Sequence record: MK509462
Source: Shigella phage MK-13
Length of the DNA stretch: 64,000 nt
Direction: 5' to 3' (one strand)
Positions 3,244 to 62,854 of this stretch are shown here, one piece after another. The position numbers and the translations under genes were made by a program. A model generated the notes under the pieces. It saw only the letters and a list, made by a program, of their open reading frames with translations. It was not told the DNA's origin and made no database searches. Within the stretch, counting starts at the first letter, position 1. Each line of letters starts with the position of its first letter.

Positions 3244-3471
3244 ATGTACCTGAAAAAGATCGTGAAGAAGCCGAAAGGTGATGTTGTCGAAGTATGTCTC
3301 ATTGAGGCTTACGTTGACTCCTGGAACAACGAGCAGCGTTACTTCATGGTCGACACGATGGTGTATGTGCCAGCCTCTCACCTGAACCGTGATTTCATCA
3401 CAACCGAAAATGTCGTCCGCTGGGAGATTGCAACGCAGTCCGATATCGACGAACATCCCATTTTGAACTGA
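3244..3471 (+). CDS. hypothetical protein (75 aa)
   Basis: ORF with GAGGG RBS. Confidence 0.35.
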   Translation: MYLKKIVKKPKGDVVEVCLIEAYVDSWNNEQRYFMVDTMVYVPASHLNRDFITTENVVRWEIATQSDIDEHPILN

Positions 3472-4195: not shown

Positions 4196-4224
4196 GTTTA
4201 CTTCTTCAATAAACCCCGTATACT
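4196..4224 (+). promoter_or_regulatory. T4-type early promoter (-35 GTTTAC, 17-nt spacer, -10 TATACT) embedded in stem-loop
   Basis: acggggTTTACttcttcaataaaccccgTATACT; hairpin spans the -35 (PeSL-like cassette). Confidence 0.5.
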
Positions 4225-4273
4225 TCATTCCATAAGCAGCACAACACTGACTCTGAAATGAAGGAAATACATC

Positions 4274-23145: not shown

Positions 23146-25339
23146 ATCATTAGAATTTAAGAATGCGGTTGAGACTGCTGCCCCGTCCAACCATGTAATC
23201 GTTGTGGACATCTCTTATTCGATGTACCGTGCGCTCCCTGAAGTCCGTAAGCATCTGAAGGAGAACCTGCCTTCTCTGGTGAAACCGGAAGACACTGTGA
23301 GTGTTCTGTATTTCTCCTCCAAAGGCGACTTTGGCACAGTGTTTGCTGGTCGTCAAATCAGCGCGGCTTCCGACCTGAGTGAGATGAACAAACTGATCGA
23401 CCGCTTCCTACAACCGTCCGGATGCACCGGATTCGTGGAACCTCTGGGTCTGGCTGTAGACACCGCTCGTAGTCTGAAGAAGCCTGGTTATGTCAACAAC
23501 CTGGCATTCATGACCGACGGCTATGACAACTGCTGGCGCTCCAATGAAATCCTGGCCGTCGCCGAAACCCTGCCATTTGCTTTCGATAACATTACATTTA
23601 TCGAATACGGCTGGTACTGTAACCGCGAACTGCTGGCTCTGATGTCTGAGCGCTCCGGTGCGACCCACGTGTTTGCCGAAGGTCAGGTTGAGTATCAGGC
23701 CGAGCTGGAAACCGTGCTGAAGTCTTCAGTGCCGAAGGTGGTTGTTGATGTGCCTCTGCTATACACCCACGCCATCTATGTTGAAAACGGCGTGGCAACT
23801 GTTCTGGCAGTACAGGCAGACTCAGAGCATCCCGTTGGCCACGTGAGCATCCCTGAGAGCGTCACGAAGCTGTGGGTCGTCAATCCTAACATGATCGACC
23901 AGCTTGATGCGCTGGCGGACATCCAGGCGGCATACGTGCTGGCGTTCTATGGCGTACACATCATGGACGCCGATTTGGTATGGGCTGCCCTGAAGAAAAC
24001 GGGTGACGTTCGCTTCATCAAACAGTACAGCAACTGCTTCACCAAGCAGGACTACTCCAACATCAAGATCGATCTGGTTCAGGCTATTGTTGACGACCAG
24101 CTGCGCGGCGTTGACGGTATTGACTATGACCTGGTTCCAGCTGAAGATGCGACGACCGTCGTTGACGTGCTGACGTATCTGGCTGAAGCTGGCGTGTGTG
24201 TTGCTACCAAACATCCTATGTTCTCCTACAAGAGCATCGGTCGCGGTACGGCTCAGAAACTGGACGATACCGAAGACAAGCTGGCAGAACAGATCGCGAA
24301 CGCCGAGTCCAAAGAAGAGCGCAAAGCCCTGGCTCTCAAGCTGGCCGAGCACGAAGAGTGGAACCCGACGTTCGAACCTAACAACGATCTGGGTGTTGTG
24401 CCAATCAGCGATTTGGTCTATAACTCCGAACGCCCTAATATCAGTGTACGCACTGTCCAGCACGGCACTGTGGCGATTCCGGAGTTCGTGCAGAAGAAGT
24501 TCGGTCTGCCTGAAGAACTGGATACTTTCCAATGGCGCAACTACACCATCGTCAAAGACGGCATCATCAACGTGAAGACTCTGCCGTTCAGGGCTGATGT
24601 TGAAGTTGTAACCAATCTGTGCCAGATGGGCGTCCATGTGTTCGGTGGTCCGGAAGTGTTTGTCCTGAACCTGGAAAGCGTACCGCTGGTCAACCGCGCC
24701 ATGGTCAAGAACATCAGTGCTGCTCAGTTCTTTGCGGATAATGTCCGTCTGGAAGCCCTGAAAGGCAAGCAGAAGGTGCTGAAGTTCTTCCGTGATGAAC
24801 TGGTTGGCAAAGGTAACGCCAAAGGCCTGGCAGTACAGTACGGTGCTGAGGCGGCCGAGTTCCTGTCCTTCTACGGCATCCGTGATTACGGCTTCTCACC
24901 GAAGACCGAACTGAAGGACTCCACGGATGTCTACATGAGCCGTGAGCTGAACGTTAAGATCGCTGGAGCGTCTTCTCTGCCTAGCATCGCGGCAGTACAG
25001 AAGAAGATTGCCGAGAACAAGAAACTCAATGCGGGTGACTTGTTCATCGCCAATGCTCTGAAGGAATACGAAGCATTCGTGAAGTCTCCTGCGATCACTG
25101 CCGTGCCTGAAGCCGTACAGAAACAGCTGATCGAAAACTGGATCGACGCTGCTGCCAAGGCGGCCATCACTGAAGTCCGCGCCCTGAACAAGACGCTGTC
25201 TAAAGTGGTGTATGGTATCGTTGCTGGTCACGGCTGGTTCACCGACCTCGACCTGGAAGAGTCCACCATGGAAGTTGAAGTGGATGGTGTGAAGTACAAG
25301 GTCACTGCCGAACTGGCAGAGAAAGAGATCAAAATCTAA
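23138..25339 (+). CDS. von Willebrand factor A (vWA) domain protein (733 aa)
   Basis: MIDAS-like VVVDISYSM (D-x-S-x-S) near N-terminus followed by TDG...D elements; long C-terminal extension of unknown function. Confidence 0.65.
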   Translation: MIESLEFKNAVETAAPSNHVIVVDISYSMYRALPEVRKHLKENLPSLVKPEDTVSVLYFSSKGDFGTVFAGRQISAASDLSEMNKLIDRFLQPSGCTGFVEPLGLAVDTARSLKKPGYVNNLAFMTDGYDNCWRSNEILAVAETLPFAFDNITFIEYGWYCNRELLALMSERSGATHVFAEGQVEYQAELETVLKSSVPKVVVDVPLLYTHAIYVENGVATVLAVQADSEHPVGHVSIPESVTKLWVVNPNMIDQLDALADIQAAYVLAFYGVHIMDADLVWAALKKTGDVRFIKQYSNCFTKQDYSNIKIDLVQAIVDDQLRGVDGIDYDLVPAEDATTVVDVLTYLAEAGVCVATKHPMFSYKSIGRGTAQKLDDTEDKLAEQIANAESKEERKALALKLAEHEEWNPTFEPNNDLGVVPISDLVYNSERPNISVRTVQHGTVAIPEFVQKKFGLPEELDTFQWRNYTIVKDGIINVKTLPFRADVEVVTNLCQMGVHVFGGPEVFVLNLESVPLVNRAMVKNISAAQFFADNVRLEALKGKQKVLKFFRDELVGKGNAKGLAVQYGAEAAEFLSFYGIRDYGFSPKTELKDSTDVYMSRELNVKIAGASSLPSIAAVQKKIAENKKLNAGDLFIANALKEYEAFVKSPAITAVPEAVQKQLIENWIDAAAKAAITEVRALNKTLSKVVYGIVAGHGWFTDLDLEESTMEVEVDGVKYKVTAELAEKEIKI

Positions 25340-25381
25340 TCCAACGGGCGGGGCAACCCGCCTTTCTTTGGGAGAAGTAGC

Positions 25382-25708
25382 ATGAGCAGTAAACCAACAT
25401 ATGTTGAAGTCATGCGTCATCTGGCTCAGTACGCCACTGACAATCTGAACTTAGATGCAGACGAGGTGAAATACCCAAACGTCAAGAAAATGATTGACGG
25501 TGAAGTTGCCACAGACGATGCGTTGGATAAGTTTGCAGGCCTCCGCACCAAGAAGGATCTCGGCGGTGATGAACTGGACGCTATCGAAATTGTAATGGAC
25601 CTCGAAGAAGAGTTTCAGGTCGAAATCGACGACGGTTGGCTGGGTAGTAAAGGCGATGACCCGACCATGGGTGAACTCGCTGAACTCGTGGTTGCCCTGC
25701 GCAAATAA
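25382..25708 (+). CDS. acyl carrier protein-like protein lacking the phosphopantetheine-attachment serine
   Basis: DLGGDELDAIEIVMDLEEEFQVEI aligns with ACP helix II [24 protein letters not shown] but has Glu where the modified Ser should be. Confidence 0.7.
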   Translation: MSSKPTYVEVMRHLAQYATDNLNLDADEVKYPNVKKMIDGEVATDDALDKFAGLRTKKDLGGDELDAIEIVMDLEEEFQVEIDDGWLGSKGDDPTMGELAELVVALRK

Positions 25709-25714
25709 CAGAAG

Positions 25715-25739
25715 TCCCCAACGTTTGTTGGGGATTTTT
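25715..25739 (+). terminator. rho-independent terminator
   Basis: tccccaacgtttgttgggga followed by T-run. Confidence 0.7.
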
Positions 25740-25749
25740 ACTTTTAGGG

Positions 25750-25779
25750 GTTTACTTCCTCTAAGGAATATCCTATTAT
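25750..25779 (+). promoter_or_regulatory. T4-type early promoter (-35 GTTTAC, -10 TATTAT)
   Basis: GTTTAC, 18-nt spacer, TATTAT directly after terminator. Confidence 0.45.
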
Positions 25780-25831
25780 TCAATAACTGGCGAACGATGG
25801 GGTTCACCAGGTTGAAAGGTAAGATTATATC

Positions 25832-26071
25832 ATGAAGAACAAAATGGTCGAAACTTCAGTAGAGATTGATCGCAATTGGGGCTTGCTCCGCGCTAAAGGG
25901 TTCCGCCGTGTGTATGCGACCAAAGAGGTATATGCCCAGCGCCGTGACGTTATCATCAGCAAGAAGGGCAAAGAGTGGGTTGCTGAAGAAGTCGATGTTG
26001 AGACAGGCGTCGTCGGCAAGGTGAAAGCCAAGGCCGCGATCCTCTTCGCTCTTCTGAAGCACATCAGCTAA
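25832..26071 (+). CDS. hypothetical protein (79 aa)
   Basis: ORF with conserved aaggtaagattatatcATG context. Confidence 0.4.
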   Translation: MKNKMVETSVEIDRNWGLLRAKGFRRVYATKEVYAQRRDVIISKKGKEWVAEEVDVETGVVGKVKAKAAILFALLKHIS

Positions 26072-26083
26072 TTCTATAAACTC

Positions 26084-26133
26084 CGGCGGGGTATGATTAC
26101 CCCGTCTATTTGAAATGCAGGAACTATATCATG
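26084..26133 (+). repeat. intergenic hairpin cassette copy 1 (near-identical copy at 26643..26692)
   Basis: cggcggggtatgattaccccg...atttgaaa...tatatcATG; about 40 of 50 positions shared with copy 2. Confidence 0.7.
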
Positions 26134-26637
26134 ACCGATCAACAAATTCAAGATTTATTTTACCTCGCCCATGATAAGTCCCACATCATGCGCCCCGGTA
26201 CTGTTTCCCCTGCCGTCCGTGATCTGGTGCAAGAATTACGCGAACCACAGACGACCACACTTTATCGCGGGCTGCCTAAGGAGGACGTTGCGCGTTTAGA
26301 GATGTTGTTTGAACGAGGCGACATGTTCCAGACATGGGATTCTTGTCTTAGCTTCAGTGAACTGAAGCATGTGGCCAAACAATTTTCTAAATCGTACGGA
26401 ACCAAAGCTGTTGCCCGCATTTGTTACAAACATCGAAACGGACTCCCGGAGGGGCTTAATGTCTATGGTTCTCTAGAAAAATTTGTGAACAAAGGCGATG
26501 AATCAGAAATGGATATGCTGGACTTGGCGTCCATGGAGAAAGAATGGATATTCTGCCAGCCTCGCGTCATACCAGTTTCAAGAAAAATGGCAACAGACGG
26601 GACGATGGTTTTTACCGTATCACTTGTTACCCTATAA
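26131..26637 (+). CDS. hypothetical protein (168 aa), flanked by direct-repeat cassettes
   Basis: Start placed at ATG after conserved ctatatc context; bracketed by the 26084 and 26643 repeats. Confidence 0.5.
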   Translation: MTDQQIQDLFYLAHDKSHIMRPGTVSPAVRDLVQELREPQTTTLYRGLPKEDVARLEMLFERGDMFQTWDSCLSFSELKHVAKQFSKSYGTKAVARICYKHRNGLPEGLNVYGSLEKFVNKGDESEMDMLDLASMEKEWIFCQPRVIPVSRKMATDGTMVFTVSLVTL

Positions 26638-26642
26638 ACCCA

Positions 26643-26692
26643 CGGCGGGGTATGATTACCCCGCCCATTTGAAACCAAGAGACTATATCATG
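26643..26692 (+). repeat. intergenic hairpin cassette copy 2
   Basis: See copy 1. Confidence 0.7.
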
Positions 26693-27064
26693 AAAAAGTT
26701 AATCCTCGCTGTTGCCCTGCTGGGTGCTTCCTTTGCTGCTGTTTCCGCCCCTCCTGTCATCACCGGAGTGTCTACCAACGGCGTTTATGCTTTCAAGGCG
26801 TATGGCCAAGACCTCGTTCTGTATAAGAACGGGAAGATGATTGAGCGCTGTGTAGCGGATGGTGTAAACCGTGGGATCGACAATCAGGGCAGTCCGTTCA
26901 TCCTGGACTTCTATGCCTGCTCCAACGGGACGAAGACCTTTGGTGTCAAGACCTTCGGCAACGTCGCCGACGGCGGCTGGGGCTTCATGATCGAAACCCG
27001 CAACCGCCGCCCGGTCACGACCATTGAAGAAGAGTTCTTGATCTCTGTCGGGGGCACGTTATGA
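26690..27064 (+). CDS. putative secreted protein (signal peptide, 124 aa)
   Basis: N-terminus MKKLILAVALLGASFAAVSA is a classical Sec signal peptide. Confidence 0.5.
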   Translation: MKKLILAVALLGASFAAVSAPPVITGVSTNGVYAFKAYGQDLVLYKNGKMIERCVADGVNRGIDNQGSPFILDFYACSNGTKTFGVKTFGNVADGGWGFMIETRNRRPVTTIEEEFLISVGGTL

Positions 27065-27348
27065 CACCATCAGAGAGAAGTTCTATCAAGGAGATGATCA
27101 GAGACAAGGCGTGTGTTGGCCATACTCAGTCAGAGAACATCTTGCGCCTGATGGAGGTCAAGAATCATATCGACAATGGCCGATTCCAATCAGCGTTGTA
27201 TGGTATGCTGGAGTTTATATCGCGGTCATCTGATCTTGGCACGGTCCGATATCTTGACGATCTGACCAAGCTGCTGAACACGGGCGGGGAAACTTTCGAC
27301 ACCGCTCGTATCCTGATTGACGGTGGACCTGAAGAAGACGAGGTGTGA
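27061..27348 (+). CDS. hypothetical protein (95 aa)
   Basis: ORF overlapping upstream stop (ATGA). Confidence 0.45.
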   Translation: MTPSERSSIKEMIRDKACVGHTQSENILRLMEVKNHIDNGRFQSALYGMLEFISRSSDLGTVRYLDDLTKLLNTGGETFDTARILIDGGPEEDEV

Positions 27349-27458
27349 TGGTGGACATTGAATTTTGGGGTTGGCTTATTGGATGTTCATTGGGCGTCTT
27401 GCTCGTTTTGTTGTGTGAATATCTCGGAGCCGTACTGTGTAAGACATTTCACGCCTAA
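27348..27458 (+). CDS. hypothetical small membrane peptide (36 aa)
   Basis: Sub-threshold ORF, start overlaps upstream stop; single hydrophobic helix GWLIGCSLGVLLVLL. Confidence 0.3.
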   Translation: MVDIEFWGWLIGCSLGVLLVLLCEYLGAVLCKTFHA

Positions 27459-27491
27459 CTAAGGGATAATCCATATCCCGAGGTGAATCTC

Positions 27492-27941
27492 ATGTTCATG
27501 TCTTCCTTCATAGACTGGTTGAACATTATCAACGGCCTGAGGATTCCTGTCGGAAACCTCGGGCTTTCTCGTTCTTCTATGCCACAGATCGACGATGACA
27601 AGCAGCAGGCGTTCCATGACTACCTGGAGGAACTTGGCATCACCATCGACGCTGGCCAGGTTCCTATCAAATCCCTCCGTCTCACCCAGAACGAAATCAA
27701 CAAGATGAAGGTCTGGAAGATCATGAAGAACATCAGAAACAAGAAGCCCATGGGTCGGGTTTGGGTGTCTTCTGATAACTATGTGGTCGACGGCTCGCAC
27801 CGCTATGTCGCCGCCCTGAACATGGATGACCGTCAGCGCATCAAGGTCTACAAAGTGGACATGCCAGCGATGGAGTTCGTCAAGGTCGCCAAGCAGTTCA
27901 AGGGTGTGAAGTTCAGAACCGTGTCTGACGCTCGCTTCTGA
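27492..27941 (+). CDS. ParB/sulfiredoxin-like nuclease-domain protein
   Basis: VVDGSHRYVAA resembles ParB N-terminal-domain GxxR-type motif; GAGG RBS. Confidence 0.45.
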   Translation: MFMSSFIDWLNIINGLRIPVGNLGLSRSSMPQIDDDKQQAFHDYLEELGITIDAGQVPIKSLRLTQNEINKMKVWKIMKNIRNKKPMGRVWVSSDNYVVDGSHRYVAALNMDDRQRIKVYKVDMPAMEFVKVAKQFKGVKFRTVSDARF

Positions 27942-27963
27942 ATACGATAGTTTATTGAAACCC

Positions 27964-41156: not shown

Positions 41157-41177
41157 AAAAGGGGCTTTCGCCCCTTT
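41157..41177 (+). terminator. terminator hairpin of promoter cassette
   Basis: aaaaggggctttcgccccttt. Confidence 0.6.
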
Positions 41178-41203
41178 ACTTCTTCAATATCCTTCCCTAT
41201 ACT
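41175..41203 (+). promoter_or_regulatory. T4-type early promoter (-35 TTTACT, 17 nt, -10 TATACT)
   Basis: Same cassette as 4196..4224; downstream leader is near-identical. Confidence 0.5.
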
Positions 41204-41251
41204 TCATTCCATAAGCAGTACGACACCAACTTGAAACGAAGGAACTATATC

Positions 41252-55521: not shown

Positions 55522-55546
55522 CTTTTGAAACGCCCTCCCCTATACT
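55518..55546 (+). promoter_or_regulatory. T4-type early promoter (-35 TTTACT, 17 nt, -10 TATACT)
   Basis: gcTTTACTtttgaaacgccctccccTATACT. Confidence 0.5.
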
Positions 55547-62516: not shown

Positions 62517-62756
62517 ATGAGCAAAGAATCAATTTACAGCGCAATGAAAGCTGCCGAGTTTCTTCCTGGCGCAATGCGCTGGCGAGTGGGTAGCCTGAAC
62601 GAGCATGCCGACCAGACGGATCGTATTCGTTACGTTACCCCTGATGGTCGCTCATATGTCGTTGAGTACCATACCCACGAGGAAGGCAAGAAGACGTTTT
62701 CGGACGTGTTCGACATTATTGAAATTGACCCAGCAAATCAAGTGCTTAAAGGTTAA
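62517..62756 (+). CDS. hypothetical protein (79 aa)
   Basis: ORF with short intergenic spacing. Confidence 0.4.
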   Translation: MSKESIYSAMKAAEFLPGAMRWRVGSLNEHADQTDRIRYVTPDGRSYVVEYHTHEEGKKTFSDVFDIIEIDPANQVLKG

Positions 62757-62854
62757 ATCAATGTAGTATCGGGGTATAATTACCCCGCTTGTAACAAAAC
62801 TGAAAATACATGTAACAGAATAGCCCTGAGGGGCGGAAACAGAGGAATTAAGAA

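Follow-up and report, generated by a model that had tools for sequence, protein, structure and literature searches.

The 64,000-nt stretch of Shigella phage MK-13 DNA analyzed here (sequence record MK509462; hereafter the window) contains a 168-amino-acid (aa) gene that lies between two similar direct repeats. We refer to the gene as ART, for the mono-ADP-ribosyltransferase that it is predicted to encode. The window is assigned to the genus Agtrevirus (Ackermannviridae): the 5-kb neighborhood of the gene matches 275 Ackermannviridae records, the closest being ChubbyThor (97%), followed by Gloob, SKML-39, and Ag3, all of which are Agtrevirus phages. An earlier note on this DNA had placed the repeats at 26084..26133 and 26643..26692, with about 40 of 50 positions identical, on either side of an open reading frame (ORF) at 26131..26637. 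It took the arrangement for a recent cassette insertion or duplication by recombination between repeats, and the gene for what is probably a recently acquired accessory gene. A structure prediction of the protein was suggested as a check, and related genomes carrying the same gene without flanking repeats were named as evidence that would speak against the proposal. The description holds: 43 of the 50 positions are identical, and the pair brackets an ORF that opens with ATG and encodes 168 aa. The features of the locus are as follows.

25715..25779, + strand: intrinsic terminator hairpin TCCCCAAC-GTTT-GTTGGGGA with a T-run, then a promoter (read from the sequence)
25751-25779, + strand: sigma70-like promoter TTTACT-N17-TATTAT, upstream of g79 (promoter scan)
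25832..26071, + strand: g79, a conserved 79-aa gene (phrog_804, function unassigned), the left anchor of the variable slot
26074..26134, + strand: repeat copy 1, comprising CTATAAAC, hairpin 26085-26106, initiation region 26107-26130, and the ART start codon at 26131
26131..26637, + strand: ART, 168 aa, ATG start, predicted ModA/ModB-like R-S-ExE mono-ADP-ribosyltransferase (R46, S74-x-S76, E136-K-E138)
26632..26693, + strand: repeat copy 2, comprising CTATAAAC, hairpin 26644-26665, initiation region 26666-26689, and the next start codon at 26690
26690..27064, + strand: 124-aa protein with an N-terminal signal peptide (phrog_5474), the right anchor in Agtrevirus/Maynard-type backbones

In Cba120-type backbones, a 92-aa g95-like gene replaces the 124-aa signal-peptide protein as the right anchor. 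The repeat proper spans 51 nt (26084-26134 versus 26643-26693), with 86% identity (44/51) between copies that lie 559 nt apart, and among direct repeats of 36 nt or more, this pair ranks first in the window. With a 1-nt indel, the similarity reaches further upstream to CTATAAAC (26074-26081 and 26632-26639), and the ART stop codon (26635-26637) sits inside the second of these. Both copies consist of two parts, a hairpin with a 9-bp stem and a 4-nt loop at the 5′ side and a translation-initiation region at the 3′ side, which gives each the same layout: upstream stop codon, hairpin, Shine-Dalgarno (SD) sequence, and start codon of the downstream gene. We call this unit the module. Its 5′ half is specific to the locus, and its 3′ half is dispersed in the window. 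The 17-nt hairpin core GGGGTATGATTACCCCG has exactly two mismatch-free occurrences in the window, against a chance expectation of 0.09 when up to three mismatches are allowed.

Neither module contains a sigma70-type promoter on the + strand, as judged from a promoter scan of 26072-26133 and 26638-26692. The TATGAT of the hairpin loop was considered as a −10 element and rejected, as it has no acceptable −35 at 16-18 nt, no TG extension, and is unflagged by the scan. The promoter motif upstream of g79, TTTACT-N17-TATTAT, occurs 8 times in the window versus 2.3 expected. The terminator and promoter at 25715..25779 are likely to mark the start of an early transcription unit that runs through g79, ART, and the downstream genes. 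With no promoter in the modules and a terminator and promoter ahead of g79, ART probably stands second in this early-type operon and would be expressed early.

Contents of the slot after g79

We examined 23 related loci (IMG/VR loci anchored on g79, together with GenBank loci) and took counts across ∼275 related phage records. In 23/23 loci, g79 lies upstream of the module, and the slot that follows holds ART, a DenV glycosylase, or nothing. ART is found in 65 of the ∼275 records and is absent from the very close relatives SKML-39, Gloob, and Ag3. We inspected the empty sites of SKML-39, Gloob, Ag3, and Maynard, and in each of the four, exactly one module follows g79. This single module is a hybrid in which the left part corresponds to copy 1, the post-hairpin part is identical to copy 2, and the join falls within the hairpin. 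Searching with an 81-nt query that spans copy 2 and keeping matches of at least 50 nt, we located modules at 322 places in 268 phage records; genomes carry one copy each, except for ∼54 records with two, and these roughly correspond to the ART-bearing ones.

The slot also accepts a second cargo. DenV, a 151-aa pyrimidine-dimer glycosylase (Pfam Pyr_excise, 2.7e-13), occupies it in 100 records, including Limestonevirus. ART and DenV are each found on two downstream backbones, one with the 124-aa signal-peptide protein and one with the 92-aa g95-like gene. To the left, the 5-nt haplotypes CTTTG, ACTCC, and ATTAT are each seen with ART, with DenV, and with a backbone gene, and nearly all combinations of left haplotype, initiation-region type, and cargo occur. 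Such near-free assortment, a four-gamete-type pattern, points to recurrent recombination on both sides of the ∼46-nt module. In Cba120-type loci, the ART-flanking repeat continues past the start codon and covers codons 1-4 (MTDQ) of ART and likewise of the next gene; a junction duplicated by integration would be expected to look like this. In other Kuttervirus phages, the slot is filled by ART orthologues of 55-86% identity, and because alleles this divergent share it, the ART family is an old resident there. The window itself encodes neither DenV nor a second ART.

The allele in the window has a more recent history. The window ART differs by one single-nucleotide polymorphism (SNP) from that of ChubbyThor. 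The 17 nt to the left of the hairpin (26068-26084) show five differences from ChubbyThor and are equal to Gloob, an empty site; the window g95 is of the Gloob/SKML-39 type and very different from that of ChubbyThor. A ChubbyThor-type ART in Gloob/SKML-39-type flanks indicates that there is a breakpoint on either side of the cassette, each in or close to one of the two modules. Between the window and Cba120, which belongs to another subfamily, the synonymous divergence (dS) is 0.156 for ART and 0.30 for g79, versus 2.2 for vWA, 1.2 for ACP, 2.2 for g152, and 1.1 for g250; the corresponding nucleotide identity is 95.5% for ART and 68-82% for the backbone. More broadly, phages with backbone identities of 74-91% carry class-I ART alleles that are 95-99.8% identical. 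The low dS and high identity of ART relative to the backbone show that this allele spread laterally, well after the backbones diverged. The GC content at third codon positions (GC3) of ART is unusually low, 0.473 versus a window gene mean of 0.599 (sd 0.062); the gene set omits ART, which overlaps a longer ORF, and its GC3 was computed separately. A sharp intragenic recombination patch was also observed in the ACP gene at 25450-25540, where ∼45 SNPs in 90 nt group the window with Gloob and ChubbyThor with SKML-39.

These comparisons bear on the earlier note in different ways. Its view of ART as an accessory gene is supported by the patchy occurrence among close relatives. Recombination between repeats is in keeping with the empty sites that carry one hybrid copy, but the repeats are neither the scars of an insertion nor a simple duplication. 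A recent history is supported for the ART allele of the window, which shares ancestry with other phages much more recently than the backbone does (dS to Cba120 0.16 versus 1.1-2.2), but not for the family, which is old at the locus. The step from near-identical repeats to recency must be given up: genomes of other genera that have a single copy conserve the hairpin core just as well, and the initiation halves are individually conserved, so that repeat similarity reflects function and the repeats provide no clock. The same gene without the flanking repeat pair was encountered only in a divergent lineage (L013), which has no downstream hairpin.

The gene product and the two parts of the module

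The 168-aa protein matches PHROG 832, "RNA polymerase ADP-ribosylase" (E = 7.8e-15), which is also the RefSeq name of the Cba120 orthologue. The AlphaFold2 (AF2) model built from the family alignment (pLDDT 85.5) adopts an ART fold. In Foldseek searches of the PDB, the model matched HopU1 (E = 5e-7), C3 (TM 0.60), ExoS/T, and Tre1; in BFVD, the best non-family viral matches were ModA/ModB of T4-like phages (TM ∼0.70, E ∼1e-10). A profile alignment with hhalign places L-Y-R46-G, S74-F-S76, and E136-K-E138 on the T4 motifs L[YW]RG, S-x-[ST], and EQEW, respectively, and R46, S74-x-S76, and E136/E138 are invariant across the ART family alignment. Among R-S-E ARTs, E-x-E (rather than Q-x-E) predicts arginine specificity. 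Since ART carries E-x-E, it is predicted to be arginine-specific, and taken with the fold and motifs, the gene product is best described as a putative ModA/ModB-like arginine-type mono-ADP-ribosyltransferase. A PDB sequence search returned nothing usable, and a precomputed Pfam tag on two relatives (PF26816) was not reproducible and yielded no name with our local Pfam copy.

The family is small, with nine clusters at 90% identity, and two representatives were found below 1e-10 in a library of 1.8 billion proteins. The dN/dS of ART versus Cba120 is ∼0.12, which indicates purifying selection. ART is probably an intact, selectively maintained, early-expressed, and dispensable enzyme. By analogy with its T4 counterparts, its targets during takeover would probably be the RNA polymerase of the host, translation factors, or both. 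Our literature search found no experimental work on an ADP-ribosyltransferase in Ackermannviridae.

The hairpins fold as sense RNA. Copy 1 (GGCGGGGUA-UGAU-UACCCCGUC, 26085-26106) has a folding energy of −16.8 kcal/mol (z = −2.5), and copy 2 (GGCGGGGUA-UGAU-UACCCCGCC, 3′ end GCC, 26644-26665) reaches −19.6 kcal/mol (z = −4.2); the antisense strand folds less well in each case. Across 21 distinct copies, 99.5% of stem cells are paired versus 43-65% in a control in which the 3′ arm was slid. Changes within the stem are almost all C-to-U or A-to-G, which give G-U pairs in the sense RNA and A-C mismatches in the antisense equivalent, and the Ag3 hairpin contains one compensatory G-C to A-U change. 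An intrinsic terminator combines a GC-rich stem-loop with an immediate U-rich tract; here the stem-loop is present and the tract is not, as the post-stem tails UAUUUGAA and CAUUUGAA are U-poor, with no good U-tract. The homologous hairpin site is nonetheless annotated as a terminator in one RefSeq record (H143). An Rfam search of 25300-27500 returned no matching family, the sole return being a sub-threshold chance match to a CRISPR direct repeat. The hairpin is probably an attenuator or an element that stabilizes mRNA 3′ ends.

Two variants of the hairpin deserve mention. In two IMG/VR loci (L010, 3313-3334; L016, ∼3313-3334), the second hairpin keeps its stem but carries its central 8 nt in inverted form, TAATCATA in place of TATGATTA; a loop flip of this kind is typical of hairpin or cruciform template switching. 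The only hairpin in the window that resembles the two copies lies at 62770-62787 (CGGGGTATAATTACCCCG, TATAAT in the loop), just after a 79-aa ORF at 62517-62756. The possibility that this ORF is a g79 paralogue carrying the same module was rejected (BLASTP E = 2.6), and the scan flagged no promoter or terminator near 62770-62787.

The 3′ part of the module follows a fixed order, namely (T/C)ATTTGAAA, an SD sequence (AGGA or GAGA), ACTATATC (with CTATATC), and ATG. In copy 1, the initiation region (26107-26130) reads TATTTGAAATGCAGGAACTATATC, with the SD AGGA at 26119-26122; in copy 2 (26666-26689), it reads CATTTGAAACCAAGAGACTATATC. The pattern TTGAAA-N9-TATATC-ATG occurs 7 times in the window versus 0.13 expected, and under relaxed matching the context TTGAAA-N3-AGGA-ACTATATC-ATG precedes at least 12 window genes. 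Positions of the context on the + strand include 3463, 4575, 16260, 25811, 30016, 41231, 55078, 55576, and 55827. This dispersed context may enhance translation, or a translational regulator of the phage may act on it. The initiation-region halves of the two copies are distinct, each being conserved together with its own downstream gene, and strings are also shared between cargoes: TATTTGAAATGCAGGAACTATATC-ATGACC is identical before ART in the window and before DenV in P46FS4 (L012), and one identical initiation-region string was found before ART, DenV, and g92. The initiation context doubles as microhomology at the DenV cassette junction.

Proposed exchange at the module and its alternatives

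We consider it likely that ART is an exchangeable accessory cassette that is gained, lost, and replaced by recombination at the hairpin/initiation module. The repeats are conserved functional modules that supply homology for the exchange. In the mechanism that we propose, the spacer after g79 would be a regulatory module, made of a sense RNA hairpin and an initiation region, that serves as a recombination-prone slot. The ART cassette would bring a second hairpin copy at its 3′ end and thereby place two modules in direct orientation, with short homology available in the 21-22 nt of identical hairpin and the ∼12-27 nt of shared initiation-region and start sequence. If the two copies in one genome recombined, ART would be deleted and one hybrid copy, as observed at the empty sites, would remain; the reciprocal event, possibly via a circular intermediate, would insert the cassette, and double crossovers with a co-infecting phage could insert or swap the cargo. 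Exchange at the module would keep every gene equipped with a ribosome-binding site.

In a bolder form of this proposal, the spacer would serve Ackermannviridae as a slot dedicated to cassette exchange and would be the promoter-less equivalent of the promoter-early stem-loop (PeSL) cassettes of T4-like phages. Through excised circular intermediates that pair at the hairpin, genera would actively exchange host-takeover and DNA-repair genes, the slot holding DenV, no cargo, or one of three or more allelic classes of ART, and the hairpin would be selected for recombination as well as for an RNA function. If true, lytic phages would thereby possess an integron-like means of trying out accessory genes. 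We regard this extension as speculative and rather improbable.

Several observations weigh against exchange at the module, or against parts of the picture drawn around it. The recombination mechanism is read from junction structures. The right junction of DenV has only the 12-nt ACTATATCATGA and no second hairpin, and the divergent ART lineage of L013 (56% identity) likewise has no downstream hairpin. Mosaicism is general in the region, with breakpoints inside genes as well, as in ACP, and the modules are not the sole crossover sites. The data fit either direction of change, a gain of ART in the window lineage or its loss in Gloob and SKML-39. As to the hairpin, the covariation is statistically weak and not significant, as 41 of 500 shuffles match the observed score; because of this control, RNA-level constraint on the hairpin is suggestive only. 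The hairpins are also unlisted by the terminator scan and their U-tract is weak, which makes an RNA role uncertain. As to the protein, hhalign of ART against T4 ModA/ModB gives modest values (E ∼1e-4, probability 55-58%), and searches of Pfam and NCBIfam with ART gave no match.

The alternative that survives best is that the repeat similarity is a regulatory coincidence: a terminator-plus-ribosome-binding-site design would have been kept twice by selection and have played no role in the insertion or deletion, ART being inherited vertically and lost by unrelated deletions. That the 3′ half of the repeat follows an initiation-region consensus seen throughout the genome, that the hairpin is conserved in single-copy genomes, and that ART orthologues at 55-79% identity share the slot would all be natural under this scenario. 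What it does not account for is that 4/4 empty sites examined are precise hairpin-level hybrids, that the hairpin module is locus-specific and doubled almost only where ART is present, that flank haplotypes and cargo assort freely, and that the dS of ART is 7-14 times below that of the backbone. We judge it unlikely.

Less plausible still is a history of loss only, in which ART was ancestral with both modules and disappeared through independent repeat-mediated deletions with no recent gain. Deletion between direct repeats is mechanistically easy, the hybrid single copies fit it, and alleles as divergent as 55% in the same slot are consistent with long residence. Nevertheless, a class-I ART that is 95-99.8% identical across backbones of 74-91% identity, with a dS of 0.16 versus more than 1, requires lateral spread; the window combines a left flank of the empty-site type with a ChubbyThor-type ART; and DenV at the same slot also needs insertions or replacements. 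We therefore hold loss alone to be quite improbable.

Lastly, it is very improbable that a mobile element (a transposon, a homing endonuclease, or an integron-like recombinase) brought ART and left the repeats as target duplications or as att/attC-like sites, since, although direct repeats surround a single gene, the hairpin loosely resembles folded attC sites, and ChubbyThor has an inserted NUMOD3 HNH endonuclease gene at a distance of ∼1 kb, domain searches of ART and its neighbors in the window revealed no transposase, integrase, or endonuclease in or beside the cassette, a 50-60 nt repeat that contains a functional SD and start codon far exceeds a target-site duplication, every ART-less genome has the module once, the right junction of DenV is different, and neither the window nor most of the ART-bearing phages have the HNH gene.

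Neighboring features and known systems

Other features of the region and of the window were recorded along with the slot. The HNH gene of ChubbyThor (L004, 4311-5141) lies between g152 and g250, at the equivalent of window position ∼27941-27955; it is absent from the window and the other loci. The 134-nt spacer between g95 and g152 (27349-27482) is the place where Maynard and Ag3 carry a gene for a 52-aa membrane protein. A tblastn search with this protein found no match in the window, and a small ORF, either divergent or decayed, may lie in the spacer. Elsewhere in the window, a dispersed 37-nt repeat with 86% identity, CC(C/G)TATACTTCATTCCATAAGCAG..., occurs at 4216-4252 and 41195-41231, with a weaker copy near 55540. 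It contains a −10-like TATACT with TTTACT at −35 (41175-41203) and is probably a shared early promoter and leader. A motif scan picked out, on both strands at 2540-2590, the inverted repeat CCTGTTGTATG...CATACAACAGG (11 bp, loop ∼14 nt), and imperfect tandem-like repeats (GAAGGCGATGACG...) at 516-685 would encode an acidic/lysine-rich low-complexity stretch.

The spacer between ACP and g79 is variable as well. In pSal-SNUABM-02, an extra 74-aa gene lies between two copies of the terminator/promoter composite, and Ag3 carries an extra 94-aa gene in the same spacer (loci L002, 2207-2683, and L007, 2008-2489). The composite represents a true PeSL-like arrangement within Ackermannviridae.

The g79 slot offers a clean natural example of accessory-gene gain, loss, and replacement at short conserved regulatory sequences in lytic jumbo-type phages outside the T4 family. 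Phages of the Ackermannviridae are in wide use against Salmonella, E. coli O157, and Dickeya, and their engineering could profit from the slot as a predictable place for insertions that is tolerated in nature. The minimal (168-aa) ModA/ModB-like ART is in turn an uncharacterized and variable host-takeover factor that may add to the differences between near-identical therapeutic phages.

Of the known enzymes, ART is most like ModA and ModB of T4, together with the catalytic domain of Alt: the R-S-ExE motifs align, the folds agree (TM ∼0.70), the PHROG is the same (832), and in both cases a small, non-essential gene sits in an early-type transcription unit. It differs from ModA and ModB in length (168 aa versus 200/207 aa) and shares only ∼15-25% identity with them. 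ART is also predicted to share its fold and active-site architecture with the bacterial R-S-E toxins and effectors HopU1, C3, ExoS/ExoT, and Tre1, but it has no secretion or targeting domains and stands in the context of host takeover by a phage; C3 differs further in having Q-x-E, where ART has E-x-E.

For the slot itself, the obvious comparison is with PeSL cassettes, which mediate modular shuffling in T4-like phages (Arbiol et al. 2010, PMC2839356; Comeau et al. 2014, PMC4122927). These cassettes are dispersed in ∼50 copies per genome, contain a sigma70 promoter, and flank non-essential genes in hyperplastic regions (PMC2839356, PMC4122927). In both systems, a short conserved intergenic cassette runs from an upstream stop through a stem-loop to an SD and start codon, variable genes are flanked by it, the empty site in a relative is a single chimeric cassette, and unrelated cargo is swapped at the same cassette. 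The differences are that the ART-flanking modules have no sigma70-like promoter, that the module is locus-specific and present in one or two copies per genome, and that it belongs to Ackermannviridae rather than to T4-like phages (Straboviridae). Mini-circles that form during infection are a feature of PeSL. Our search of the literature found no description of the locus or of such a mechanism (PeSL, promoters, or terminators) for Ackermannviridae. The module thus appears PeSL-like in its working but fails two defining features, so we do not file it as a PeSL member. The PeSL concept may nevertheless extend to Ackermannviridae and to promoter-less hairpin/initiation-region modules: PeSL-mediated modular shuffling is the closest known system, and the module of the g79 slot is a variant of that mechanism.

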